Source: a bacterium
GTDB taxonomy: Bacteria > Patescibacteriota > Saccharimonadia > Saccharimonadales > DATKHC01
Direction: 5' to 3'
Assembly (NCBI GenBank): GCA_021781215.1
Contig: JAJXXC010000006.1
Location: 11,029 to 75,028, forward strand
Length of the DNA: 64,000 nt
Both the position numbers and the translations under genes were made by a program. Position 1 is the first letter of the stretch. Every line of letters begins with the position of its first letter. Positions 8,894 through 22,728 of the stretch are shown here, one piece after another. Under the pieces are notes generated by a model that saw only the letters and a program-made list of their open reading frames with translations, was not told where the DNA came from and ran no database searches.

Positions 8894-9532
8894 CTAATTT
8901 TGTTGCCCAGACTTAATTGCTTTCCATTTATCTCTTGGACATCTAACTGACCATTCTTTCCAGTGAACCCTGTAGTCACCAAATTCTTCTTCCTCAACCC
9001 AATGAAGTTTAGAGTTGTCAGTAATTCTTTCTGGGAATCTTATACCATTTAAGTGGTCTATCTCATGTTGAGCAACTCTAGCGGAAAACCCCTCAAATAC
9101 ATGAATTATTTCATCACCATTTCGATTAAATGCCCTAACTGTAACTTGTTTCGCTCGTTCAACTATCCCACAGACCCTTGATGTTGAAAAACAGCCCTCT
9201 CGACCTTCTTCTGTCTTGTCCGATTTTTTAGTAATTACGGGATTAATGAATTCTTGTAATTCGGGCTGCTCACCATCTCCAACCGCATTCATTCCAATAA
9301 TTACTATTCGTTTTGAAACACCAATTTGTGGAGCAGCTAGGCCAACTAAGGTTGGATACTTTGCGTCACCTTGTCTTCCGTAAGCAACCCGAAACATCCC
9401 GTCAATAAGCTCTTGGATTTCAGGATTCGTGATACCGGCAGGATTAATAGGTTCTGCAACTAGATTTAGAACTTCACTGTCAGGAGAAACCTGATTATCA
9501 ATAGATTCCTGGGCATACCTTTTTTCAGTCAT
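8894..9532 (-). CDS. def: peptide deformylase
   Basis: Motifs GLAAPQIG, EGCFS and HEIDHLNG. Confidence 0.9.
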   Translation of the reverse strand: MTEKRYAQESIDNQVSPDSEVLNLVAEPINPAGITNPEIQELIDGMFRVAYGRQGDAKYPTLVGLAAPQIGVSKRIVIIGMNAVGDGEQPELQEFINPVITKKSDKTEEGREGCFSTSRVCGIVERAKQVTVRAFNRNGDEIIHVFEGFSARVAQHEIDHLNGIRFPERITDNSKLHWVEEEEFGDYRVHWKEWSVRCPRDKWKAIKSGQQN

Positions 9533-9788: not shown

Positions 9789-10616
9789 ATGAAAATATTA
9801 GATGGCAGAGAGTTAGCTAGCTACATCAAGAATCGACAGCTTAGAGAGGTGACTACTCTCAGGATAAACTATAAAAAAATACCGAAATTGGCGATAGTCC
9901 AGATTAAAGATGATCCGGTAATCAATACTTATGTCAGATTAAAAAAGCAATATGGTGATGATATTGGAATCGAGGTCGAGAGTTTTCATCCCAAACAATC
10001 CGATGCAATAGCAACTATAAATAAATTAAATATGGATGATAGCGTCGATGGTATTATCGTGCAGCTACCTATAGAAAATGTTGGGCAAACGGATGAAATT
10101 TTGAATACAGTTAACGCCGACAAGGATGTTGATGCCCTGTCAGATAAGTCGCAATTTGATCCGGCAACGCCAACGGCAATACTATGGTTATTGGCCGGAT
10201 ATAATATTGAACTAAACGGTAAAAATATCCTAATAATAGGCAATGGTAAATTAGTTGGCAGGCCACTCAGCGAGATGTTAGCAAAATCTGGCCAGAAAGT
10301 AACAGTTGCTGATAGAAAAACTAAAAATCTTAAAGACCTTTCCCTCAACTCTAATATAATTATTACGGCTACAGGCAGTCCCGCCATACTTAGTTCAGAT
10401 ATGATTGCTCCAGGTTCAGTTATTGTCGATGCGGGCGTAGCTACGGATAAGGGTAAAAGTGTCGGCGACTTAGATGAATCCGTATATCTAAGGGATGACT
10501 TAATAGTAACTCCAACTAGGGGTGGGGTTGGTCCTTTGACTATATGTTCATTATTTTCAAATGTAATCAAATCTGCTCAGAATTCTATAGACGATAAAAT
10601 ATTGAATAAACTCTAG
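9789..10616 (+). CDS. folD: bifunctional methylenetetrahydrofolate dehydrogenase/cyclohydrolase
   Basis: DGIIVQLP, TPTAILWLL and PTRGGVGPLT motifs; 275 aa. Confidence 0.9.
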   Translation: MKILDGRELASYIKNRQLREVTTLRINYKKIPKLAIVQIKDDPVINTYVRLKKQYGDDIGIEVESFHPKQSDAIATINKLNMDDSVDGIIVQLPIENVGQTDEILNTVNADKDVDALSDKSQFDPATPTAILWLLAGYNIELNGKNILIIGNGKLVGRPLSEMLAKSGQKVTVADRKTKNLKDLSLNSNIIITATGSPAILSSDMIAPGSVIVDAGVATDKGKSVGDLDESVYLRDDLIVTPTRGGVGPLTICSLFSNVIKSAQNSIDDKILNKL

Positions 10617-10775
10617 CTTTTTTATACCAAGTGTGATATATTAGAATAAGTTGTTTAAGAAAAGCTTTGACTGGCCGCTCTCGGACTAAAATCTCAATAA
10701 TCTCTCACTTGTTATATAAGGGGAGATTTTTATATTTTAATCTGTTGTGCTAACATTTATCCAGTACTAATAAAT

Positions 10776-10850
<75 letters not shown>

Positions 10851-10952
10851 TCGGAGAGTTACAGATGAGATTTTATTATAAAATACCTAGACTAAAGATT
10901 TGTGGCCAAATCTCATCTGTTAAATAGTTTGATTCTATTCAATGATAGATTG

Positions 10953-12180: not shown

Positions 12181-12573
12181 ATGGACTTCGACCTACTGGT
12201 CTTGGACACAAATTACTATTCAGCCTTGGCGAAAAAAGACATTAGTGTTAATTCACTTATCCGAAATTCAGAAGAAATTGCTTTACCTCATACAGTAATC
12301 GGTGAGTTACTTGGAGGTTTTCGTTATGGAAGCCAATTTGATAAAAACTATAACGATTTAAAACGACTTCTAGCAAAGCCAACATGCAGAGTACTCATGC
12401 CATCCATAGAAACAGCAAATATATATGGTCGACTATATGCTGATCTTAAGAGGCGTGGAAAAATGATTCCTATGAATGATATTTGGATAGCAGCTCTAAC
12501 TATTGAGTACGAAGGAACACTAGCTACGTATGACAAAGATTTCACCGCCATCCAAGGCATTAAGCTTGTTTAG
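12181..12573 (+). CDS. vapC: PIN-domain toxin VapC
   Basis: LVLDTNYY (first acidic residue), mid E/D residues and C-terminal TYDKDF; 130 aa. Confidence 0.8.
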   Translation: MDFDLLVLDTNYYSALAKKDISVNSLIRNSEEIALPHTVIGELLGGFRYGSQFDKNYNDLKRLLAKPTCRVLMPSIETANIYGRLYADLKRRGKMIPMNDIWIAALTIEYEGTLATYDKDFTAIQGIKLV

Positions 12574-12852: not shown

Positions 12853-13563
12853 ATGAATGAACAGAATCTTAACCCTGGAGCTATACCGGCATCAGGTCTT
12901 AGTGAGGAAGATAACCAGAAAGTAAAAGATATTTATTCGCAGCATGGTAGAGCGTCGAGTGATCTAGGATTGGCACAAGATGTTCAGGCGAAAGTGGTAG
13001 CACATGAAGCTGAAATAAATGACCCTGAGCCCGCAAATGGAATCGATCCTAGTAGTGGCGAATACAGAAAACTTGAGCGATGGGAAAGAGACAATAGTTC
13101 GCTACCCAATATGCCTGATTCTACAGGCGCACAGGGAATAGTTGATAACGCTCAAGATAGCTATGACCTATCAGTAATTCGTGGACAAAAGCATTTCGAA
13201 CAACATATGCCCGAATATGTTGAACAAGCAAAAATTGATGCAGCAGCTGAGGGTATATCGATAAATTCTAATGCTCATGAAGAACTTTTAACCCCTAGTG
13301 CACTAGAAGCACAGCTCGGATTGGAACATCTAGACGATATTGAACTTCGATTAAATAGAGCAGAAGCACTTCTTGCAGCATTGCTTCAAGAGTGCCAGCA
13401 AGTACCAAATACATTCACAGTATACGGCAAGAAGACCATGGAGATATCAATCGAGAAAGTAGATAAGGTTTTAGACCAATTTAGAAGTAAAAAAACGATG
13501 GATGACCGAAATATAATTGTATCTGAGATGCGCAATCAGGCATATGATGAAGCATCGAATTAA
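12853..13563 (+). CDS. hypothetical acidic protein
   Basis: 236-aa ORF, no recognised motif. Confidence 0.45.
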   Translation: MNEQNLNPGAIPASGLSEEDNQKVKDIYSQHGRASSDLGLAQDVQAKVVAHEAEINDPEPANGIDPSSGEYRKLERWERDNSSLPNMPDSTGAQGIVDNAQDSYDLSVIRGQKHFEQHMPEYVEQAKIDAAAEGISINSNAHEELLTPSALEAQLGLEHLDDIELRLNRAEALLAALLQECQQVPNTFTVYGKKTMEISIEKVDKVLDQFRSKKTMDDRNIIVSEMRNQAYDEASN

Positions 13564-13762
13564 TAGCTCAACAACAAACTAACAATTAAGCTTCACTTGA
13601 CGTTAGAAGTTTGCTTAATGGATATAGCTATTTCAATAAGCAATGCCACTCATTAATTTCTGTACAGATATTGTTTCGGTTCGAACTGAGGTGGTTCAGT
13701 ATTACACATACGTTTAATGCAGACGTATTAAGAATTACAAAATACATGCTATAGTATGCATC

Positions 13763-14248
13763 ATGAGAAAATTTGAGCAATCTAAAAAACTTGTTGCATC
13801 TGGTCTAGCCTTAACTTTTGGAACATTTATTATGAGCGGAATTGACATTAATAGTTCGGCTGCTACTAAAAATATAGCTAAAACAGAGATTCAATCTACA
13901 GAACACTTGAAATCAAAACTAGAAGTTTGTAGCCAAGCATATAAATCATTATGGAAACCTAATGACCAGTTTATCCTTGGCTTATCGTATCTTGCCCTAC
14001 TAGCCAAACAACTTGGAGTAACGGTTCAAACTCTAGAAACTGGTGAGTTTGGAACAGCTGTTTGTACCCCTGGTTTTAGCTCAAATGTTGTAAACGAAGA
14101 TAAAATAGTTGAAGTTAAAAATGTGAGTGGTGAATGTCTAGTTTTTGGTTATGAGCCAAAAAAACTCCCTACTAAGCCTAACGCTTTATATAATGATTTA
14201 GCCGTAACCTGTGTAATTACTCCTAAGCCAATAGTCATTACAAGTTAA
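13763..14248 (+). CDS. secreted hypothetical protein
   Basis: Sec-type N-terminal signal (KKLVASGLALTFGTFIMSG..SSAA). Confidence 0.5.
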   Translation: MRKFEQSKKLVASGLALTFGTFIMSGIDINSSAATKNIAKTEIQSTEHLKSKLEVCSQAYKSLWKPNDQFILGLSYLALLAKQLGVTVQTLETGEFGTAVCTPGFSSNVVNEDKIVEVKNVSGECLVFGYEPKKLPTKPNALYNDLAVTCVITPKPIVITS

Positions 14249-14399
14249 ATCTACTTTTTTATATTTGCTTATAAGAGATAATCTCTCTAATGATCTCCTT
14301 ATCACTTGAATAGGATAAAGTCACCAAATACGCTACGATACCTAAATTATGAGGATAATGACAATACCGATCTGATATTGTTACCAATAGTCATATTTA

Positions 14400-14428
14400 T
14401 TGACAAATCTCTATTCATTGAGATAATT
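14400..14428 (+). promoter_or_regulatory. putative promoter of 14453 ORF
   Basis: TTGACA-17 nt-ATAATT. Confidence 0.4.
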
Positions 14429-14452
14429 AAGGTACTTTAAATCATAAGCTAA

Positions 14453-14677
14453 ATGAACACACAACAAATACAATCTAAAAAATCAATTACTCCGGCGCAG
14501 GCTCTCTTGCAAAAAGAGGTGACTAGAAAAGAGTTTATAGCTACATCTGGACTTGCAATAGTATCGATTCTGGGTTTTTCTACTATTATTCATTTTCTGA
14601 CTGGTCATGGTAATGGACGGCCAATAGTCGCAAGCTCTAAACAAAGTGGCTATGGATCAAGCTCCTACGGTCGATAA
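14453..14677 (+). CDS. small protein with Tat-signal-like RK motif (paralog of 16017..16352)
   Basis: VTRKEFIATSGLAIVSILGFSTIIHFLTG followed by only about 25 further residues. Confidence 0.55.
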   Translation: MNTQQIQSKKSITPAQALLQKEVTRKEFIATSGLAIVSILGFSTIIHFLTGHGNGRPIVASSKQSGYGSSSYGR

Positions 14678-14717
14678 GAATAACTACTGATTTTTCTGCT
14701 ATCTGATGTTTTATGAG

Positions 14718-15695
14718 CTACTCTTGAGATTGATTTAAGCCAGTTTGTGTTTTAAGGGTGCTCGGGATAATGTCCGTGATCAATTGTTTGTTGGCCTTAA
14801 TTTGTCGAGTAACATTAGGGTGAGTACTGGGGGCTAACGTCCGACGTGTCATCGCATTAGTGGTAGTTATTGTTGGTTTTAATGGTGACTTAGGCATAAT
14901 ATTTTGACCTGTTTGTATAAAAATACCATCTTGTTGTTTTAGCTCATGCCTGTTGATAAGCCACAATAACAGAATGGTAAGGTTATACATAAATATAATA
15001 GGCCCAGCTATTATCAGTTGATCAATAATATTAGCAGTAGGCGCCATTAACATTGAAATAATGAATGCTGAAACTATTATGTATCGTTCGGCTTTAAATA
15101 ATTTTCGGGGTGGTAAAGGTTTAATATGATTAATAAACAGTAAGATGATCGGTAGTTGAAACAGCAGCATCGAACCAAGTAAATAGATCGTTAGAAATGA
15201 CATGTATTCCTGAATGGTAAATAACGGATGGATTTGTTTGGTAGTAAACTGATTACTAAGAAAATGTAGTGCAGCGGGCAACCCGATGTAATAGCCAAAA
15301 CAAAAACCGATTATTGCCAGTATCACCGAAAAAAAACTGTAACGAACTATAGAGCGTCTGACGTGGTCTCGGATGAGAGGTCTTAGAAAGGCCAATAATT
15401 GATAGACTATAACTGGTACACTGGCCGCAATACCTACATACAAACAGACCGAGAATAAAAAGTTTATTCCACCTCCTGGTGATGTATATATAAATTGTTG
15501 ATTATTCGAAGGCCTAAGCAAAAAGCTCACAATATGTTGCTGAACTGAATAGGCTACCATAGAAAATAGCATAATTGAGCCCACTACATATATCAGTCGT
15601 TTCCTTAATTCGTACAAATGTTCAATAAAAGGCTTAACGACTTCGTCTAAATGACTTGTCTCAGCCTTTCTTTTCTGGTGTTTCCTTTTTGTCAT
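14718..15695 (-). CDS. tatC: twin-arginine translocase subunit TatC with about 70-aa C-terminal extension
   Basis: FIEHLYELRKRLIYVV N-terminus and six TM helices; overlaps tatA by 35 nt. Confidence 0.85.
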   Translation of the reverse strand: MTKRKHQKRKAETSHLDEVVKPFIEHLYELRKRLIYVVGSIMLFSMVAYSVQQHIVSFLLRPSNNQQFIYTSPGGGINFLFSVCLYVGIAASVPVIVYQLLAFLRPLIRDHVRRSIVRYSFFSVILAIIGFCFGYYIGLPAALHFLSNQFTTKQIHPLFTIQEYMSFLTIYLLGSMLLFQLPIILLFINHIKPLPPRKLFKAERYIIVSAFIISMLMAPTANIIDQLIIAGPIIFMYNLTILLLWLINRHELKQQDGIFIQTGQNIMPKSPLKPTITTTNAMTRRTLAPSTHPNVTRQIKANKQLITDIIPSTLKTQTGLNQSQE

Positions 15696-15870
15696 CAGTT
15701 TTACTTTCGTGTAGGTCGTCAGAAAATCCTTTTCTGAGTTCTCGCACAGAGTTAGATAGATTCTTTGTTAGTTTTGGTAGGTTTTTGCCACCAAACAAAA
15801 CCAAGATAATCGCTAAAATAATAATAAGTTCTGGAGCGCCTAAATCAAGGAATGCAAAATTTGAAAACAT
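15661..15870 (-). CDS. tatA: twin-arginine translocase subunit TatA/E
   Basis: LGAPELIIILAIILVLFGGKNLPKLTKNLSNSVRELRKGF (TM, FG hinge, amphipathic helix). Confidence 0.85.
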   Translation of the reverse strand: MFSNFAFLDLGAPELIIILAIILVLFGGKNLPKLTKNLSNSVRELRKGFSDDLHESKTDDKKETPEKKG

Positions 15871-15948
15871 ATAAACTCCTAATATAAATTGTTATTCAAA
15901 TAATACCATAACTAAAATAGTTTTCTAGTTATAATCTTATTGTCGTCT

Positions 15949-15978
15949 CTTGACTCTTATGCTTTAACATATGTAGAA
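15949..15978 (+). promoter_or_regulatory. putative promoter of the small-ORF/beta-helix module
   Basis: TTGACT-18 nt-TAGAAT; the segment is partly duplicated at 19145-19235. Confidence 0.4.
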
Positions 15979-16016
15979 TAAAAAGCAGTAGAATAAGACG
16001 TGAGATATTATAAGTT

Positions 16017-16352
16017 ATGGGAACAAATCACTCAGAGTACTCCAGCAATGGTTTGAATAGAGGGCTAGGAACGGATACAGCTACCGCTATGTTTGTCAAT
16101 ATTCGACATGTAGAGATGCGGTCAGCTAGTTTAGCGGCTTCGAGCAACCATCTATCAACCCCAATCCAAAACCTTCTTTCAAAACAGGTATCTCGTAAGC
16201 AGTTTTTGTTAATTTTGGGTTTTAGTATTGTTTCGATTCTGGGCTTCTCTAGCATAGTTCATTTTTTTACCGGGAGACGTCCAGGAAATCATATAGCTCA
16301 GAATACATCTAATACCGCATCTAATTATGGACATAAAATACAAAAATCATGA
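16017..16352 (+). CDS. small protein with Tat-signal-like RK motif
   Basis: VSRKQFLLILGFSIVSILGFSSIVHFFTG; paralog of 14453..14677. Confidence 0.55.
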   Translation: MGTNHSEYSSNGLNRGLGTDTATAMFVNIRHVEMRSASLAASSNHLSTPIQNLLSKQVSRKQFLLILGFSIVSILGFSSIVHFFTGRRPGNHIAQNTSNTASNYGHKIQKS

Positions 16353-16419
16353 GACAGATAATATTTGATACTATTGTTGCGCAAGGCGAGATAGAAGTAA
16401 GTGGCTATAGGCATGATCA

Positions 16420-18843
16420 ATGACCCAGCGCTTACCAATACCTGGTGGCGATGATGGTGATTGGGGAGATATTCTTAATGGATATCTTGGTGTATCACTG
16501 TACAGTGACGGCACTCTAAACCCTAATGTAGTATCTGATTCTCAAGTAGCTAGCTCCGCAGCCATTAATCCTACTAAAATCTCTGGTATTGCGGAAGTGC
16601 GGACAAATAAAAATCAACCTAGTGGTTATGCGGGATTAAATAGCTCTGGTTTTGTGCCAGTGGCTCTTATCCCTGATGCTACGACATCTGTCCCGGGTAT
16701 AGTTCAATTAGCGGGTGACTTGGGTGGTAGCGGTACTACTGCTGTCGCGCCAACTTTGGCTAATACTAGTAATGTTCAAAGTGTAGTGAATAGTATTATT
16801 GCTACTAATACTACAGTGGCTGGGGCTTTGCAAAAGACTAATAATCTAAGCGATGTTAATGATCCTGGATATAGTCGAGCAAACCTCCATGTTCCAGTAC
16901 TGACTCCGGCTGCCTGTGTATCCGTAACTAATGTGGCCAGTCTTTCGGGCCTTAACACCTATGATGGGTATACTTTAGTCACAGGAGATACGGTTCTTTT
17001 AGTCGCTCAATCTACAGCATCTCAGAATGGAGTCTGGATAGTTGCTTCGGGTTCTTGGATACGTCCTACAGAATTTGCTTCAGGTTCAACTATTAAGGGT
17101 AGGTCAATCCTAATTACTAATGGTGCTACCTATGGCAACACTCAATGGTCATTAGATGCTCCTACAGCAGGTATAACTATAGACACTACTTCTCAGACTT
17201 GGAATAACCTAAATACTTTAAATGGTAAGTACACATCTGTTTTTGGTGTAGCCGCACCAACTGGAGCAGCTGCTACAGATGCCGTCAATATCCAAACACA
17301 GATTAATAATGCTTCATCTAATGGTGGTGGAATCGTACAGCTCCAAATAGGTACCTATGCTTTATCATCAACCTCGCGTATTGATTCCACTGTAACTTAT
17401 TATTCCGCTACATCAGGGTCTTATCCTGCTGGGTCATGGCAGGACTCTTCTATTACATCAGCTGATGTCGGCTCTTATGTTATCGGAATAGGCATTAATG
17501 GCCGTTCGCCTAAGATTTTAACGGTTGTTACCTCACCTGTTACCTACTTTACTACTGATATTGCTCCAGGTGGAACGATATCCGCTTCGGCTGTAACTAT
17601 AGTTAATCCTGGCATTGTGTTGCCAGATGGTGTCACTCTCCAAGGAATAGCTGCGCCGTCAGGTGATGTAGAAGCAAAAACTGTATCTGGTGGAACAACT
17701 ATCGTAGATAGTGGCACCGGAGTAAGTATCTTCTTGCGCGGTGGAGATAATATCGCTGCCTATTTCGGACGTTCTAAAATCAAAGATTTAGGAATATGGG
17801 GTTCAGCGACCTATGGTTCAGTTGGAAGTACTTTAGCCGGTATTTGGGCAAACAATAACACTTCATTCTTAGAGATATGGGACTGTGACATCTCCGGTCA
17901 TTATCAGTTTGGGCTAGCGCTAGATTACAATATTAATTCACTAGATTGCCATAATACGGGCTTTAGCTACTGTGGTCACGCCAGTGCTACTAGCCCAACA
18001 GGTGGTGTGGGAACTGATGTTTATAACGGGTTTGCTTCAGCCGCAATTAATTTTTACAATTGTTGGGGATATAATCTATGGGGCTGGTTTATTGCTCTTG
18101 GTAGCGGTGGACAGGGATCAATCTGCCTTTATAGTTGCCAATGGAATGGTATTAAAGCAACTTCTGCTTATCTATCTGGTTCGGGTGTTCAGGTATCTGG
18201 GCCAAATTCTGTATTGGTAGATTGTTGGTCTGAAACATGTGCTTCCTATGATGTAATAGTTGGCTATGGTTATTGCACTATTATTGCGAGTACTTTATTT
18301 GGTGGTGGGGTTGGTGCTGTCCAAGTTGCTGGATCGTCAACAATAGTTAATCTTATAGGTATTGCTAGCTCTGGTCACAGTACTGCCGCGGTCGTTAATT
18401 CTAATGCCGGTCACGTGTCATGGATGAACTGTCATATCTCAGATTCTGTATTCCTAAATGGCGTGGCTACACCAACGCAGGCAGGAGGTATTGGAACAAC
18501 TAGTAATCTCGTGAGTGCCGGAACAGTTCCAGTCCCTAATGCCGTAACGGTAACTACCAATGCTGGAACCATCCCAGTTACGTCCAGTATTAATACATTC
18601 ACTAATTCATCGTCTGCAGCTATGAGTATTACTTTGGCTACCTCTGGAGCCGTCCAAGGACAGCAGACGATCGTACAAGTATACGATTATGCAGGCACTA
18701 CCGAGTCAATCACTTGGGTTAATACCGAGAACTCTACTATTAGTGTTCCAACTACATCTAATGGATCAACAACATCGCCACTAACTGTTGAATTCATATT
18801 TAACGCTAAGACTACGAAGTGGCGCTGTATTCGATCGGTTTAG
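16420..18843 (+). CDS. large signal-less tail-fibre/beta-helix-like surface protein
   Basis: N-terminus MTQRLPIPGGDDGDWGDILNGYL is shared with 19358..21376; NNLSDV..SRANL motif; NGGGIVQLQIGTYAL pectate-lyase-3-like segment; G/S/T/N-rich. Confidence 0.6.
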   Translation: MTQRLPIPGGDDGDWGDILNGYLGVSLYSDGTLNPNVVSDSQVASSAAINPTKISGIAEVRTNKNQPSGYAGLNSSGFVPVALIPDATTSVPGIVQLAGDLGGSGTTAVAPTLANTSNVQSVVNSIIATNTTVAGALQKTNNLSDVNDPGYSRANLHVPVLTPAACVSVTNVASLSGLNTYDGYTLVTGDTVLLVAQSTASQNGVWIVASGSWIRPTEFASGSTIKGRSILITNGATYGNTQWSLDAPTAGITIDTTSQTWNNLNTLNGKYTSVFGVAAPTGAAATDAVNIQTQINNASSNGGGIVQLQIGTYALSSTSRIDSTVTYYSATSGSYPAGSWQDSSITSADVGSYVIGIGINGRSPKILTVVTSPVTYFTTDIAPGGTISASAVTIVNPGIVLPDGVTLQGIAAPSGDVEAKTVSGGTTIVDSGTGVSIFLRGGDNIAAYFGRSKIKDLGIWGSATYGSVGSTLAGIWANNNTSFLEIWDCDISGHYQFGLALDYNINSLDCHNTGFSYCGHASATSPTGGVGTDVYNGFASAAINFYNCWGYNLWGWFIALGSGGQGSICLYSCQWNGIKATSAYLSGSGVQVSGPNSVLVDCWSETCASYDVIVGYGYCTIIASTLFGGGVGAVQVAGSSTIVNLIGIASSGHSTAAVVNSNAGHVSWMNCHISDSVFLNGVATPTQAGGIGTTSNLVSAGTVPVPNAVTVTTNAGTIPVTSSINTFTNSSSAAMSITLATSGAVQGQQTIVQVYDYAGTTESITWVNTENSTISVPTTSNGSTTSPLTVEFIFNAKTTKWRCIRSV

Positions 18844-19220
18844 TAGGGTATATAAAATATTGAATGCTTTCCCATTTTCATAGGTAATTGTAATGCGGTA
18901 TATTCTAAGAAGATAACGAATCTAGGCAGCATATTGTTAAAATCGTAACTGAACTATTAACCAGAGTTTTGAGTCTAATCACGTATTGGCAACTGTAGCA
19001 ATTTAGGTATCAATGTATTTTGTTGTATTGATTGAATAGTTTAGGGCTGATCAGATAGAGCAACGAAGAAGATACTGAACCAGTAGTTGTAATCGTAATA
19101 GTATTGTTAGTTGACTAGCTCCGCTATTGCCGCATTTTTATATTCTTATGCTTTATACGTTTGTAAAATAAAAAGTAGTATAATAACGTGTGTAATATCA
19201 AGGTCAGGGAAACAAATAGC

Positions 19221-19361
19221 ATGGTGCACTTTAGTAGCAGTTTTAATTTAGAACTAAAGACAGCCACCGCTATACCCAATAGTAAAAATCTATCGGATTC
19301 TATAGCTTCAGTCATAGCCAGTATTGTAATTAAACTACAGACGCAGAGCATAAAGTCATGA
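19221..19361 (+). CDS. truncated homolog of the 16017 leader ORF (46 aa)
   Basis: Hand translation MVHFSSSFNLELKTATAIPNSKNLSDSIASVIASIVIKLQTQSIKS; ATGA stop/start overlap with 19358. Confidence 0.3.
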   Translation: MVHFSSSFNLELKTATAIPNSKNLSDSIASVIASIVIKLQTQSIKS

Positions 19362-21376
19362 CCCAGCGTTTACCAGTACCGGGCGGTGATGATGGCGATT
19401 GGGGAGATATTCTTAATGGATTCTTGGATGTGTCACATAACGCTGACGGAACCTTGCAGCCGCAGGCTGTTGCGTCTGCTGGTGCCGTAACTAAGGTTAA
19501 CAACCTCTCCGATTTAACCTCTACTGCTACTGCTCGAGCTAACCTAGGTTTGGGAACGGCAGCTGCATCCGATAAGGTAGCCGCTGGCTCGGCGGGTGTA
19601 TTAGATGCTACCGACCCAACTACAACCAATAGTAGAGCACCAGTTGGTGCGGCTACTGGAGATTTATCGGGAACCTATCCTAGCCCTACAGTAGCTCGAT
19701 TAAATGGAATTGCAGTTTCTGGAACTCCTGGAATCGGAGACTTATTAACTGCCACTAACTCTAGTAATGCAGCATGGCAATCTAAACCCTATGTCTCTAG
19801 GATCAGTGGCACCAGCACCACCATAGCTCCGTTAGCCTATTTTAATATTAAAGATTATGGAGCTAAGATTGATGGAGTTACTGATGACTCAGCTGCTGTA
19901 AATGCTACCATAACTGCTGCCTTTGCAGCAGGAGGAGGTCGAGTTATTATTCCGCCCGGAGTCGTAGCATTAAGTGCGCCAATTATTCACGCTTCGTACG
20001 TTATTCTAGAAGGTTCTGGATCAGATGTTAACGGATCCTCGGGGACTATTCTCAAGCCCCTAAGCAATTACGGAGATGTAATTTCCATTCCTACCGGACT
20101 AACGGGGTTTGCTATCCGGCAGTTATCGATTATATATTCAGGAATGAACCAGTATAGTAGTTCTGCTAGCGCCTCTACGCACGCTGCAATAAAGTTCACT
20201 ATTGCAACATCTTCGGCCACTCAAACAATTCAGGGCTTAATAGAGGACGTGGTAGTAATTGGTATGAAAGTTGCCGTATATATGCCCTGGGTTCTAGGAA
20301 GTAGCCTCAATTATTCTCAGTATTATCAGATAATGCTACAACGCCTTCAATTTGCTTCTAATGGCATCAATCTGCTTATGAATGGTTTTTCCGATTCAAT
20401 TATTAACAGTATAATCTGTAACAATACGTTTGGCGTATTACCTTCTAGTCTAGAGACTCGCGTTGCACCGATAGCATCTACTGCTACTCCGTCAGGAACT
20501 TATACCATAGCGTCACAGAATTGGATTAATGACCTTGGAAATAGTCTAATTGATAAATTAGAGGTGTATGGTGGTACGGGTGATGGTATTGTTTTCCAAG
20601 ACTGCATAACAACTACTATTCGGGCCTGTGAGTCAGGGTCCCTGACGGGAAATGGAGTAACTATGCTTGGTTGTAACTCTCAGACCTGTTTGTATGGTCT
20701 TCATGTCGGTCTTGTTAGCGGGCATGGAGTATATGTAACTGATTCAGCTACCAGCAATAATCCTTCTGTAGATTGTCAATTTTTTGGACTGAACGTTAAT
20801 ACAGCCAATTTGCACGGGGTCTATGTTCATGCCGCAGTTTCAGCTGCTGAACGCTTAGGCTTTTATGGCTGCCAGATAAATAATAATAGTCTCTCTGCTG
20901 CTAATACTTACAATGGGCTCGAGCTAGAAGCTTCTAGCGTAGTAGTAGTTGGAGGTACTTACGGTGATTATCAAGTCACGCATACGCAGAGATACGGGAT
21001 TAATAATCGCTATTCTGGGTCTTCTGGGCTAACGGTTATAGGCGTCGAGATGAAGAACAACTTAACTGGCCCAATGGCTCAGCCTAACGACACCACGGGC
21101 CGGATGATTGCTAATATCGGGCTAAACAATACCGCTTTTAGCACCTATACTCCAGGAGTACCTGCTGTTGGATCATCAAACGCAATCGGCAACGGTAATG
21201 CCTATGATATTACTATATATATGTCAGGAACTGCTCCGTCTGGAGTCCATATCGTCGATGTTAACGGGACTGATCAAAACTTAGCAGGCAATCCAACTGT
21301 TGTACATTTGCATCCCAATGAGAGAATATATTTCAACACTACATCTCCCGGGGCCTGGATGTGGTACGGCGAATAA
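19358..21376 (+). CDS. pectate-lyase-superfamily (right-handed beta-helix) tail-fibre-like protein
   Basis: YFNIKDYGAKIDGVTDDSAAVNATITAAFAAGGGRVIIPPG (Pectate_lyase_3 signature); NNLSDLTSTATARANLGLG fibre motif; no signal peptide. Confidence 0.7.
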   Translation: MTQRLPVPGGDDGDWGDILNGFLDVSHNADGTLQPQAVASAGAVTKVNNLSDLTSTATARANLGLGTAAASDKVAAGSAGVLDATDPTTTNSRAPVGAATGDLSGTYPSPTVARLNGIAVSGTPGIGDLLTATNSSNAAWQSKPYVSRISGTSTTIAPLAYFNIKDYGAKIDGVTDDSAAVNATITAAFAAGGGRVIIPPGVVALSAPIIHASYVILEGSGSDVNGSSGTILKPLSNYGDVISIPTGLTGFAIRQLSIIYSGMNQYSSSASASTHAAIKFTIATSSATQTIQGLIEDVVVIGMKVAVYMPWVLGSSLNYSQYYQIMLQRLQFASNGINLLMNGFSDSIINSIICNNTFGVLPSSLETRVAPIASTATPSGTYTIASQNWINDLGNSLIDKLEVYGGTGDGIVFQDCITTTIRACESGSLTGNGVTMLGCNSQTCLYGLHVGLVSGHGVYVTDSATSNNPSVDCQFFGLNVNTANLHGVYVHAAVSAAERLGFYGCQINNNSLSAANTYNGLELEASSVVVVGGTYGDYQVTHTQRYGINNRYSGSSGLTVIGVEMKNNLTGPMAQPNDTTGRMIANIGLNNTAFSTYTPGVPAVGSSNAIGNGNAYDITIYMSGTAPSGVHIVDVNGTDQNLAGNPTVVHLHPNERIYFNTTSPGAWMWYGE

Positions 21377-21430
21377 CGATAAGAAAATTGAGACCTAAAA
21401 ACCATCAAGATTCTTTGTAGTAAGTAGGGG

Positions 21431-21799
21431 CTAAACTTGACGTCTTCTTTTATGTATTTGAGTTAAAACAATAAGCAGGCAAGCTGCTGCAGCAATCGTT
21501 ATTATGATAGCCGCCCAGAGTCCTGTATCGAACCCCTTGTTAGTAGAAATCGTAGCAACAACGCCTTTAGGTGTCGATATACCTTGGTGCTGCTGTGTTG
21601 ATGGAACAGTCTGGGGTTGAGTTGATGAAGTGGGTGAAGTAGCAGCCGAACCAGTGCTAGTAGGCGTAGAACCAGTATTTGTAGCTGCGGAACCAGTGCT
21701 CGTAGTCGTCGTAGTACTGTTAGTTGAATAGGCTCCACCGGTACTATAAGTATTAGCACCATATACACTAGCTATCAGGGTATCTATCATTAAAGTCAT
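21431..21799 (-). CDS. Ser/Thr-rich, C-terminally anchored surface protein
   Basis: S/T-rich low-complexity region, then C-terminal TM LWAAIIITIAAAACLLIVL and a KRRRQV tail. Confidence 0.5.
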   Translation of the reverse strand: MTLMIDTLIASVYGANTYSTGGAYSTNSTTTTTSTGSAATNTGSTPTSTGSAATSPTSSTQPQTVPSTQQHQGISTPKGVVATISTNKGFDTGLWAAIIITIAAAACLLIVLTQIHKRRRQV

Positions 21800-21954
21800 A
21801 ATATTATTTTCACCATATCTCTATTAATACATAAAAATAATACATCTAGAAATACAATATAACAAGGTAATGTATATAATTAACTAAGCTACATACTATA
21901 GAAATAAGTATTTCGCCTAAAGATCCACAATCTATTTCATGTCTACATGGTTAG

Positions 21955-22728
21955 TTAATTAGCATCTCGACGCAAGAATAATATCCAGCCAATTATCCAA
22001 CCTATAATTAAATAGGCTAAAACTATTAGAGCTGAACGACCAGCAGAAAGTTCACTCGCACCTGATTTCAAAAGACCGTTGTTGAGTACGCCTGATAATG
22101 CGGTGAATGGTAAATATTGCTGTTGATTAGCGTTTAACAAAAGTCCAATCAGTGGCTCTACAGTAACAGGTAGTAAAAACAGAGATACTATTGCTGCTAC
22201 TAGGTTGCGGAAAAATATTGCTAATAATACTGCTATCATGGCATATGCCCAGCAGTAGAATAGAACACGCCAGATAAACTCTCGATAATAGAATATCTGA
22301 CTAGCATATGAAAGGTGATGGGCGTGAAGACCTAATATGACTAATGATGGAGATAATAGCTCAACAAAGGCTGAGAATATTATGGTAAATCCGGTGATTG
22401 CGATAATTTTAGCGAGTAATGTTTTGTTTCGACTATTAGACGAAGTTAAGGTGTACATGATGGTTCCATATCTGTATTCATGGGCCATTAACAACACAGC
22501 AATTATTGAGCTAAATAAAATCGGAGGAGCGATTCCTCTAGCTCTTGCGGCTTGAATTACTAGGTAGAGAGGGTTTTTAAGACTTATTAAATCATGTGAA
22601 GATCCTGCTCTCCAGCCAATAATATAGAAGTTATAAAAGATTATATAAACTAGGGCCAGGCCAATTAATATATAGGTCGAACGAATGCTAAATAGTTTAC
22701 GAAACTCGGCTTTAATTGCTGCAATCAT
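21955..22728 (-). CDS. ABC-2 family permease
   Basis: Six TM helices; 4-nt overlap with the upstream ATPase. Confidence 0.7.
   Translation of the reverse strand: MIAAIKAEFRKLFSIRSTYILIGLALVYIIFYNFYIIGWRAGSSHDLISLKNPLYLVIQAARARGIAPPILFSSIIAVLLMAHEYRYGTIMYTLTSSNSRNKTLLAKIIAITGFTIIFSAFVELLSPSLVILGLHAHHLSYASQIFYYREFIWRVLFYCWAYAMIAVLLAIFFRNLVAAIVSLFLLPVTVEPLIGLLLNANQQQYLPFTALSGVLNNGLLKSGASELSAGRSALIVLAYLIIGWIIGWILFLRRDAN

Follow-up and report, generated by a model that had tools for sequence, protein, structure and literature searches.

A Saccharibacteria family of fibre-like proteins with a constant N-terminal module is linked to a small Tat-signal-like gene and tatAC, suggesting an export and anchoring route

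The window analysed here, a stretch of 64 kb from a Saccharimonadales genome, contains two large genes whose products, proteins A and B, are chromosomal paralogues of a very large, Saccharibacteria-centred protein family. Its members share a short constant N-terminal module and themselves lack a signal peptide. The linkage of the family to a small gene and to the Tat system suggests a hitherto undescribed route of export and anchoring. In our preferred reading, to which we assign a probability of roughly 0.45, the signal-less family proteins dock via the constant module on a Tat-targeted mini-protein, which would serve their export and/or anchoring by hitchhiking. Members of the Saccharibacteria, like other CPR bacteria, spend their lives attached to host cells, and little is known of how they display the proteins with which they recognise or attack the host surface. 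The locus joins a huge unannotated fibre-like family, absent signal peptides, and a Tat system with unexplained cargo in reduced genomes.

The genes and elements of the locus are listed in Table 1. In the window, tatA and tatC adjoin the small2-A unit on its upstream side, and the neighbours of A and B further include an ABC transporter, PIN and FolD.

Table 1. Features of the locus, with positions in the 64 kb window
Feature	Position	Strand	Description
small1	14453..14677	+	74 aa; Tat-signal-like mini-protein; convergent with tatC
tatC	14718..15695	-	325 aa; TIGR00945 (tatC) 138.4 bits, passing the 132.7-bit cut-off; C-terminal extension of ~85 aa
tatA	15661..15870	-	69 aa; TIGR01411 (tatAE) E 4.4e-13, 48.6 bits, slightly below the 53.9-bit cut-off; Pfam TatA_B_E annotation present on an identical contig (L001)
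upstream element copy 1	15955..16028	+	promoter-like; local alignment and promoter scan
small2	16116..16352	+	Tat-signal-like mini-protein, paralogue of small1; ORF open from 16017, start ATG at 16116 taken from alignment with homologues
protein A	16420..18843	+	807 aa ORF recovered as annotated; module aa 1-39 (16420-16536); capsid-decoration-like domain aa 165-278 (16912-17253)
upstream element copy 2	19144..19217	+	alignment to copy 1
46-codon ORF	19221..19361	+	from the ORF list; in-frame ATG within ORF 19188-19361
protein B	19358..21376	+	672 aa ORF recovered as annotated; module aa 1-39 (19358-19474); PF12708 cap aa 161-223 (19838-20026)

The initial annotation had described A and B as alike at the N-terminus, and 23 of their first 26 residues are indeed identical. 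BLASTP of A against B finds 34/60 identities there (E 5e-08) and no other significant match outside the N-terminus. The shared segment is a module of ~38 aa with the consensus M-x-RLPxPGxDDGxWGxILNxFLxVSxNxDGTL, in which P6, D11, W15, G16, N20 and L23 are invariant. A profile built from 55 homologues matches A with E 4.3e-19 and B with E 4.7e-22. In the cluster search, the module profile finds 6,766 protein clusters at 50% identity (5,311 at E<=1e-10), nearly all of them from Saccharibacteria. In nearly all of these clusters the module starts at residue 1-2, and across the family at residue 1-3; in about 150 of the 196 collected homologues it is attached to unrelated bodies. This agrees with the earlier proposal of a family built in modules, the N-terminal segment being constant and the bodies exchangeable. 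Among the 6,766 clusters the bodies differ widely, and those of the family are of kinds known from phage receptor-binding proteins: fibre repeats, collagen, capsid-decoration-like domains, pectate-lyase-type beta-helices, SGNH hydrolases and lectin-like domains. The longest family proteins reach 1,790 aa. Genomes contain several paralogues each, in arrays with as many as five (L012). A genome scan yielded 48 family loci, almost all in Saccharibacteria MAGs; built on 8 close sequences and the pattern PGGDDG[DT]W, it under-samples the family. No library model of Pfam, NCBIfam or PHROG spans residues 1-40 of A or B, and cluster look-ups returned no informative names for family clusters. Literature searches on Tat export, tail-fibre, beta-helix and DUF5907 proteins in Saccharibacteria/Patescibacteria gave no account of the family or of the operon described below.

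Both A and B start with MTQRLP[IV]PGGDDGDWG, which is acidic, contains one R and has no hydrophobic segment; the canonical Tat motif S/T-R-R-x-F-L-K followed by a hydrophobic region is absent from their N-termini. The module is predicted to form an extended N-terminus and then an amphipathic helix (residues 14-26 in the AF2 model of B, pLDDT ~81). Rare relatives carry it after a cleavable Sec signal, indicating that the module functions outside the cytoplasm: in one locus (L044) the Sec signal peptide immediately precedes the module, and in P0208 a Sec signal peptide is combined with three internal module copies.

The ORF preceding A had been called a leader mini-ORF. Rather than a leader peptide, its product is a small, conserved membrane protein that bears a Tat-signal-like motif and is related to the NCBIfam model NF038009 'Tat system-associated protein'. 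This model is matched by small1 with E 1e-14 (54.5 bits) and by small2 with E 1.4e-9 (38 bits), both below its curated 100-bit cut-off, so that they are significant relatives and not members by threshold. The two are also related to each other (phmmer, 2.5e-14). A TRKEFI motif, a hydrophobic segment and a tail ending in GYGSSSYGR make up small1, while small2 has SRKQFL, a hydrophobic segment and a basic tail ending in SNYGHKIQKS. Their homologues adjoin tatC in many loci. As a family, these proteins are ~60-90 aa long, with an x-R-[RK]-x-F-L motif, a Gly/Ala-rich hydrophobic segment (19-residue Kyte-Doolittle mean 1.6-2.4) and a basic tail of ~25 aa with GYGSSxYGG. The R[RK][EQD]F motif is present in 26 of 27 small sequences, 11 of which have RR; both proteins of the window have the RK version.

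The second leader ORF, upstream of B, was reported as a truncated copy of the first. It exists, lacks the RK motif and overlaps the start of B in an ATGA junction, as described, but it is not a demonstrable truncated small gene. It has neither a membrane segment nor a GYG tail, phmmer finds it unrelated to the small family (its sole homologue lies on an identical contig), and its DNA similarity is confined to the 74-nt element that A and B share upstream. That it is not demonstrably a copy accounts for the missing RK motif, and it probably does not function as a small gene.

The order tatA-tatC-small-family forms a recurrent operon across many species, found in 16 of the 48 family-anchored loci and in most of the loci anchored on the small gene. 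By chance, tatC would be expected within 6 kb in ~0.6 of these 48 loci for a genome of ~1 Mb, versus 16 observed; in two thirds of the family loci there are no tat genes within this distance. In the window and in 15 family-anchored genome loci, a family gene is immediately preceded by the small gene, with a spacing that ranges from a 4-nt overlap to ~200 nt and frequently with overlapping stop and start. In a separate, independent scan that took the small gene as its anchor, the family gene follows immediately downstream in 9 of 12 loci. The unit of a small and a large gene, as first annotated, recurs elsewhere, with two pairs in L063 and one, stop and start overlapping, in L066, where it is part of a mobile element and tat genes are absent from the vicinity. 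The pair also occurs and duplicates without adjacent tatAC (L002, L063, L066). Most family paralogues, B included, have no adjoining small gene. According to a paper of 2018, only one of the Saccharibacteria genomes then analysed had a Tat system (PMC6031116).

These observations could be joined as follows. The acidic N-terminal module of a folded, signal-less family protein would bind the basic tail of the mini-protein, which would provide a twin-arginine signal in trans. The pair would then be exported through TatAC by hitchhiking, and the uncleaved signal may tether the fibre to the membrane surface. One mini-protein might serve all paralogues, which would explain why the module stays frozen while the bodies diversify, presumably for recognition or degradation of surface polysaccharides of the host or prey. 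Charge complementarity is the sole sign of a module-tail interaction seen, the module averaging a net charge of -3.7 and the tails +1 to +5. The fuller claim, in which a signal-anchor mini-protein captures the frozen module of a diversifying repertoire of receptor-binding-like proteins for a dedicated TatAC, to display host-recognition or depolymerase functions, is a tentative one that we consider less probable than hitchhiking as such.

Several observations count against hitchhiking: the RK motif of the window proteins, the many paralogues without a small gene, the two thirds of loci without tat genes, the NCBI label of the small family, which goes no further than 'Tat system-associated', the scores of the window proteins below the cut-off of that model, and the low overall confidence of both structure models. 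Fibre and beta-helix proteins are often trimers, and proteins of 1,790 aa, possibly as trimers, would reach or exceed the size known for Tat cargo, which also counts against it.

Another possibility is that the module acts on its own in docking or oligomerisation and fixes the bodies to a common surface structure, much as SLH domains do, or the N-terminal shoulder in phage receptor-binding proteins, with export by another route. The small protein would then be a Tat component or substrate, adjoining the family for co-regulation of envelope functions, which suits its NCBIfam name as well as the paralogues without an adjacent small gene. Some proteins contain two or three tandem internal copies of the module (P0199, P0200, P0201 and P0208), and on one IMG/VR contig (L052) a module protein is encoded among sheath, tape-measure and fibre genes, again without a small gene; both are more in keeping with a generic unit for docking or oligomerisation than with a tag for export. 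The occurrence of the module after Sec signals points the same way, as does P0166, where the module is followed by BppL_N, a neck motif of phage receptor-binding proteins. Anchoring leaves unexplained how the extracellular-type proteins of more than 5,000 clusters are exported without a signal, why the small gene stays and duplicates with the family gene in loci without tatAC (L002, L063, L066), and why its stop frequently overlaps the family-gene start. We regard anchoring alone as possible, though less probable than hitchhiking.

The bodies raise the question of a phage origin. Protein A consists of a fibre or DUF5907-like repeat (aa 85-146), the capsid-decoration-like domain, a beta-helix-like body from aa ~282 and a C-terminal domain (aa ~678-804), whereas B has tail-fibre-like repeats at aa ~41-150, including NNLSDL..ARANLGLG, followed by the cap and an orphan body up to the C-terminal end. 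The motif YFNIKDYGAKIDGVTDD...GGGRVIIPPG was correctly recognised as a Pectate_lyase_3 signature: B matches PF12708 (Pect-lyase_RHGA_epim, formerly Pectate_lyase_3) with 40.2 bits (E 4.3e-10, cut-off 27 bits), a match covering only profile positions 1-64 of 213, which correspond to the N-terminal cap. For A, no Pfam match was found, and a weak match to an NCBIfam rhamnogalacturonidase cap has E 0.0023. Among phage families, A matches the virion structural protein phrog_2824 (E 2.3e-18) and the capsid decoration protein PDB 9nx3 (E 1e-11), and B matches the tail and tailspike families phrog_18522, phrog_2234 and phrog_7458 (E 5e-8 to 9e-6); tblastn of residues 32-122 retrieves phage tail-fibre and minor-tail genes. 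All these PHROG, PDB and tblastn matches are segmental. The PDB matches of the bodies further comprise AlgE epimerases, glucanases and adhesins, and the body of B alone gives two weak cap-motif matches among 5.8 billion proteins. For neither body is there a characterised homologue that can be aligned.

Structure prediction points in the same direction at low confidence, the body models retrieving beta-helix enzymes and tailspikes exclusively. The AF2 model of the A body (aa 265-807) has a mean pLDDT of 52; across model residues 11-270, 10-residue blocks reach 50-89 and short strands recur regularly. Its top Foldseek matches are the K1 capsule lyase 7w1c (E 6.5e-5) and the AP22 tailspike, at a TM of ~0.2. 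In B, the cap reaches pLDDT ~90 and the body stays below 50 (overall mean ~52), and every Foldseek match of this low-confidence model is a beta-helix protein, AlgE6 being the best (E 9e-3). The tail-fibre and beta-helix affinities that had been proposed are thus borne out by PF12708, PHROG, 9nx3 and Foldseek, but a full beta-helix in the B body is not, as this body is an orphan sequence and its model is of low confidence. Judged by sequence, the bodies of A and B are similar to phage receptor-binding proteins, with fibre repeats, a capsid-decoration-like domain and a pectate-lyase-type beta-helix cap. Roles as adhesins, depolymerases or host-recognition proteins may be proposed for them. The family member P0166 is the target of a diversity-generating retroelement (DGR), with 16 of 19 VR/TR mismatches at TR adenines, which fits ligand-binding bodies.

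Despite these matches and the IMG/VR contig mentioned above, it is highly improbable that A and B encode the tail fibres or tailspikes of a prophage, a tailocin or some other phage-like particle, with the N-terminus as a virion-attachment domain. Neither the surroundings of A and B in the window nor L002 contain phage structural genes, and the module is present in 1 of 2.9 million viral contigs versus 48 genome loci (stricter pattern) and in 0 of 50,697 phage records. Multiple paralogues per genome and native codon usage argue against it as well. For this locus, a prophage or tailocin origin was rejected based on the missing virion genes nearby and the near-absence of the module from viral contigs. 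Horizontal acquisition, for which the raised GC content (0.42 vs 0.36) might speak, was also rejected: GC3 is genome-like (0.29 in A, 0.35 in B), and the excess resides in GC2, from a composition rich in Ala, Gly, Ser and Thr.

A and B also share non-coding DNA. As reported before, a segment upstream of each is duplicated, 15955-16028 pairing with 19144-19217 over 74 nt (~80% identity) with a local score of 65, versus 21.8 +/- 2.3 (maximum 29) for shuffles. A 25-nt core of this element is found exactly twice in the window (expected 0), and a promoter-like TTGACT-18-TAGAAT sequence at 15950-15979 overlaps the start of copy 1. Downstream of 16028 and 19217, the two upstream regions are at chance level (score 12 vs 9.8 +/- 1.5, maximum 16). 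An Rfam search of 13000-22500 gave no match at E<=1, and an RNA element in the duplicated segment was rejected. Within the coding part, 16420-16514 and 19358-19452 are 81% identical across 95 nt. Several of the differences had been called synonymous, and the first 35 codons in fact hold 11 synonymous and 7 non-synonymous codon changes. Past the shared start the remainder cannot be aligned, confirming the divergence first noted; hhalign of the two bodies matched the cap motif alone (probability 23%). Since synonymous changes prevail and the bodies are non-homologous beyond the cap motif, the module appears to be maintained by purifying selection rather than by recency. Locally, the upstream element and the module may have been duplicated or recombined in tandem, in which case the B copy would have retained the promoter-like element and the module and not the small gene. 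That a young duplication or conversion tract left a shared N-terminus and upstream element of no special function would be suggested by the non-coding element being as similar as the coding N-terminus, which might reflect a shared, recent origin or a 5'-end recombination tract, but this is the least probable of the alternatives and already contradicted for the protein module by the unalignable bodies, the heavily substituted synonymous sites within the conserved N-terminus and a module kept across thousands of clusters and many species. The same three points exclude a recent whole-gene duplication with uniform divergence.

If a Tat signal provided in trans and anchoring were true, they would explain the frozen N-terminus beside bodies that are swapped or mutagenised by DGRs, the cargo of the Saccharibacteria Tat system and the role of the NF038009 'Tat-associated' proteins. 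They would also widen the hitchhiker principle to one adaptor with many cargoes, and would represent a new export and display system of episymbiotic bacteria. Whether or not this mechanism holds, CPR surface proteomes can be annotated with the module profile and the tatA-tatC-small-family operon as useful markers.

Co-export by Tat hitchhiking has precedents in E. coli HybO/HybC, DmsA/DmsB and PaoABC (PaoA/PaoBC) (PMC4273604). As there, a signal-less folded protein is encoded beside a partner with a twin-arginine-type signal, and this is the export logic proposed here. The known partners are full-size, cofactor-containing subunits with one fixed cargo each. In contrast, the putative partner here has ~60-90 aa, made up of a signal and a short tail without cofactor domains, and would need to serve many divergent paralogues via a single constant module. 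A dedicated Tat translocase-substrate operon is phoD-tatAd-tatCd of Bacillus subtilis, in which PhoD bears its own RR signal. It resembles the present operon in combining a minimal TatAC with a presumed dedicated cargo, whereas the large proteins here lack a signal, which is found on a separate mini-protein. The pectin-lyase homologue PnlH of Dickeya is exported folded by Tat and held by its uncleaved Tat signal; pectate/pectin-lyase fold, Tat export and uncleaved anchor are the points of likeness, the signal of PnlH being part of the same polypeptide. SLH-domain surface proteins carry Sec signals. SLH and other wall-anchor modules are likewise short conserved terminal modules, sometimes in tandem, on unrelated extracellular bodies, and SLH modules have no sequence relation to the present one. 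As to NF038009, the small proteins match it significantly and adjoin tatC, but the name of the model is silent on a partner family or mechanism, and small1 and small2 fall below its cut-off. Finally, a conserved N-terminal anchor with exchangeable beta-helix heads is known from the CBA120 TSPs (PMC6517402) and from Klebsiella and Acinetobacter depolymerases (PMC6966330). Phage receptor-binding proteins and tailspikes share with the present family a constant docking segment, fibre or neck repeats, a pectate-lyase-type beta-helix and bodies swapped between paralogues, whereas the A and B genes are chromosomal, have native codon usage, lie outside any virion cluster and are tied to tatAC.

ORFs A and B, two neighbouring paralogues, are both present as the initial annotation placed them (see the table), and 23 of their first 26 residues are indeed identical. 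The part aligned by BLASTP is limited to the first 60 residues of A and 53 of B (34 identities, E 5e-08), and the corresponding DNA shows 81% identity across 95 nt, with synonymous differences at 11 and non-synonymous differences at 7 of the first 35 codons. This constant N-terminus is the hallmark of a protein family. About three quarters of the ~200 collected homologues start with M-x(1-3)-RLPxPGxDDGxWGxILNxFLxVSxNxDGTL, hereafter the module, followed by a variable body that may contain collagen repeats, DUF5907, PF26209, PF12708/PF13229 beta-helices, an SGNH hydrolase, DUF2961 or other domains. A 39-position profile of the module, which is covered by no Pfam, NCBIfam or PHROG model, matched 6,766 of 1.84 billion representative clusters at E<=1e-3 and 5,311 at E<=1e-10, and the module starts at residue 1 or 2 in almost every one. 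Scanning genomes at species level with the narrow pattern PGGDDG[DT]W gave 48 loci, nearly all from Saccharibacteria/Saccharimonadia MAGs, with single loci labelled Zambryskibacteria, Woesearchaeota and Armatimonadales. Family members measure 97-1,790 aa and are frequently found in tandem arrays of up to five (L012).

Positions of the features of the locus and of related loci (window coordinates unless stated otherwise)
Feature	Position	Strand	Remarks
PIN-domain gene	12181-12573		just upstream of the locus
small1	14453-14677		paralogue of small2; NF038009 E 1e-14, under curated cut-off
tatC	14718-15695	-	immediately upstream of the A/B locus
tatA	15661-15870	-	immediately upstream of the A/B locus
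Upstream element, copy 1	15955-16028
small2	open from 16017, probable start 16116		NF038009 E 1.4e-9, under curated cut-off
A	16420-18843		807 aa
A, DUF5907 repeat	residues 85-146		weak match
A, domain homologous to phage capsid decoration	residues 165-278		PDB 9nx3 E 1e-11; phrog_2824 E 2e-18
A, rhamnogalacturonidase-cap motif	residues 282-329		weak match
Upstream element, copy 2	19144-19217
Second mini-ORF	19221-19361		46 codons
B	19358-21376		672 aa
Unit 1			upstream element, small2 and A; complete
Unit 2			upstream element and module kept; small gene absent, body unrelated to A's
Ser/Thr-rich protein gene	21431-21799	-	122 aa; downstream of B, convergent
RT-like ORF	L067 9299-10192		adjacent to P0166 VR/TR
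bAvd gene	L067 10995-11336		adjacent to P0166 VR/TR

The module is uniformly acidic, with a mean net charge of -3.7 (range -1 to -7) over the first 32 residues. In a Woesearchaeota MAG (L044:3369-3804), it directly follows a classical Sec signal peptide, and protein P0208 has a Sec signal, three internal module copies and a Big_6 domain. Judged by these preceding Sec signals, the module is an extracytoplasmic element, normally forming the mature N-terminus. Thousands of Saccharibacteria members start with the module and have no signal of their own. None of the INPHARED phage records contains residues 1-31, and in IMG/VR the module occurs in 1 of 2.9 million contigs. This sole viral contig found with it (L052; UViG_3300010376_000032) is high-GC and myovirus-like; its module protein (9995-10897; 300 aa, Gly-rich, starting MARLPVTGGDGEAWGDILNQYL) is encoded between tail-sheath/tape-measure genes and a tail-fibre gene.

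According to the initial annotation, A and B are tail-fibre-like beta-helix proteins; a tail-fibre-like character with a beta-helix cap is supported. Residues 161-223 of B match PF12708 (formerly Pectate_lyase_3; 40.2 bits, E 4.3e-10), PHROG tail and tailspike families also hit this part, and the cap matches those at the N-termini of beta-helix proteins of solved structure, namely AlgE4/AlgE6 epimerases, a beta-1,3-glucanase, galacturonidases and the pneumococcal adhesin PfbA. Residues 32-122 are similar to phage tail-fibre and minor-tail genes. For residues 265-807 of A, AlphaFold2 gave a model with a mean pLDDT of 52, built from a shallow four-sequence alignment. Model residues 11-270 show a regular short-strand pattern with pLDDT values of 50-89 in ten-residue blocks. 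Foldseek matched the A model to capsule lyases, tailspikes, GH110 enzymes and AlgE epimerases (best E 6.5e-5, low TM scores). Used as a query on its own, the orphan body of B (residues ~225-672) retrieved only two weak cap matches among 5.8 billion proteins. In the B model, the module (pLDDT ~81, helix at 14-26) and the cap (~90) are well predicted and the rest poorly, and the Foldseek matches are all beta-helix proteins, none of them significant. Comparing the profiles of both bodies, the cap motif is the sole match. The structure models of the bodies are weak, and a complete beta-helix fold is no more than likely, least firmly so for B. The first search for homologues did not return B itself, whose 90% cluster is represented by the 108-aa fragment P0349; word-based searches can overlook this protein.

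The phage-RBP-like architecture, the beta-helix caps and the orphan-level divergence suggest that the bodies bind or degrade surface polysaccharide. Independent support comes from P0166 (L067:8001-11336, contig Ga0373610_000001, labelled Woesebacteria), a family member with the module, an FGE-sulfatase/lectin-type C-terminal domain and a BppL_N-like motif, which is the target of a diversity-generating retroelement. Its VR (9403-9520), at the 3' end of the gene, is 84% identical to the TR (10677-10794), and 16 of the 19 mismatches are located at TR adenines. We infer that an episymbiont may use the bodies to recognise its host or prey.

The mini-ORF upstream of A (small2) was initially read as a leader. 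Its NF038009 match and its homologues across loci identify it instead as a conserved Tat-signal-like protein; the NCBIfam name of NF038009 is "twin-arginine translocation system-associated protein". Among 27 mini-proteins compared, 26 contain the motif x-R-[RK]-[EQD]-F-[LIVM], with RR in 11 and RK in both window copies. A Gly/Ala-rich hydrophobic stretch of ~20 residues follows (19-residue Kyte-Doolittle mean 1.6-2.4), and then a tail of 18-35 residues with a GYGSSxYGG motif, usually Lys/Arg at the end and a net charge of +1 to +5, in contrast to the acidic module. No AxA-type cleavage site was evident by eye in these 27 sequences. In layout, the mini-proteins amount to a Tat signal peptide that carries hardly any passenger.

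Within the 48 family-anchored loci, tatC is located <=6 kb from a family gene in 16, against ~0.6 expected for a ~1 Mb genome, and 15 contain a mini-protein homologue. The same-strand order tatA-tatC-small-family is found in L011, L013, L016, L017, L023, L027, L030 and L047, and divergent arrangements resembling that of the window in other loci. The small gene ends from 4 nt inside to ~200 nt before the family gene, with overlaps in L002, L011 and L031. As an independent test, metagenome contigs were scanned with the small gene as anchor, yielding 12 loci (3 identical over the region), and the family gene lies immediately downstream in 9 of them, mostly behind tatA-tatC. L063 has two small-family pairs, in L062 the family gene lies across the tat genes on their other side, L056 has no family gene and the contig of L053 is truncated. 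At L065:2013-4924 and L066:229-3140, the stop and start of the pair overlap and no tat genes are nearby. Taken with the recurrent tatAC-adjacent pairs, this means that the small-family pair is the conserved unit, and its preferred place is directly behind tatAC. The word "module" used initially for the whole arrangement was apt, although what it describes is a pair of genes behind tatAC and not a leader-regulated gene. The L065/L066 pair, in a MAG labelled Acidimicrobiales, adjoins genes for a TrwB/VirD4-type coupling protein, Replic_Relax (relaxase-like) and a DNA methyltransferase, which suggests that a conjugative or integrative element can carry such pairs. In these Saccharibacteria TatC has a long C-terminal extension, with a total length of 325 aa for the window protein and 400 aa for that of L056 (2339-3541); TIGR00945 (215 positions) aligns to residues 22-236.

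The simplest model that would account for the observations on the family, the small gene and tatAC is a signal acting in trans. The mini-protein would supply the twin-arginine signal, its basic tail would bind the folded family protein at the constant acidic module, the pair would be exported by TatAC, and the uncleaved signal would stay as a membrane anchor. Several points stand against this. The interaction between module and mini-protein is only proposed, the window motif is RK and not RR, and the cargoes are large and might trimerise. Moreover, some proteins have the module in internal tandem copies, and the phage tail cluster of L052 has it without the small gene. The main rival, in which the module would be a generic surface-docking or oligomerisation unit linked only indirectly to Tat, fits these last two cases better, and is considered less likely than not. 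The trans-signal model would explain why purifying selection holds a single module constant as bodies are exchanged, why one small gene can serve many paralogues, B included, and why the Tat system is kept next to these genes in reduced genomes. Given the counterpoints, a probability of roughly 0.3-0.45 is assigned to the trans-signal or hitchhiker step.

Regarding local history, the non-coding element described initially upstream of both units was recovered with a score of 65 (shuffles 21.8 +/- 2.3). Its 25-nt core has 2 sites only in the 64 kb window, one per copy, and copy 1 overlaps a promoter-like TTGACT-18-TAGAAT site. An Rfam search of this region matched no family, and outside the element the upstream regions of A and B are unrelated. 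The stop of the second mini-ORF overlaps the B start as ATGA, as annotated; the label "truncated copy" had to be dropped, this ORF having no detectable kinship to the first mini-ORF or the mini-protein family. Unit 2 has the element and the module without the small gene, and its body is unrelated, which suggests that the two units arose by a duplication or recombination event anchored at their conserved 5' ends. The G+C content rises to 0.41-0.43 at 16001-22000 versus ~0.36 in the flanks (window ~36-38%). This is not a mark of foreign origin, because the rise stems from second codon positions (GC2 0.50-0.54; Ala/Gly/Ser/Thr-rich composition), while GC3 is native (A 0.29, B 0.35). Recent duplication was rejected as an explanation of this locus, because the bodies do not align, synonymous change in the shared N-terminus is heavy and the module is kept throughout the family. 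A prophage was rejected too, given the native GC3, the housekeeping genes as neighbours and the near absence of the module from phage collections.

The closest public match, contig JAKBFK010000015.1 (GCA_021833525.1, a Saccharibacteria-type assembly), is identical across the region. The PIN-domain gene, which recurs on L001, the identical contig, probably encodes a toxin-antitoxin toxin. The Ser/Thr-rich protein downstream of B has a membrane segment at its C-terminus and ends in RRRQV, and its gene contains 21-nt tandem repeats (21639-21722). Part of this gene is 78% identical to 49 nt of the A-B spacer (19070-19118), which may be a duplication remnant or a low-complexity chance match.

Known analogues of the trans-signal model include dedicated substrate-translocase operons such as phoD-tatAdCd and Tat-exported, signal-anchored beta-helix proteins such as PnlH. 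Neither the searchable literature nor the domain libraries yielded a description of the module family or of how it is linked to Tat and the mini-protein, and the chance is non-negligible that it represents a wholly new one-adaptor, many-cargo export and display system. Tat hitchhiker pairs, e.g. PaoABC, are a known analogue (PMC4273604). The family and its small gene can be likened to Tat hitchhiking and dedicated Tat operons on the one hand, and to RBP-like modular surface proteins on the other.
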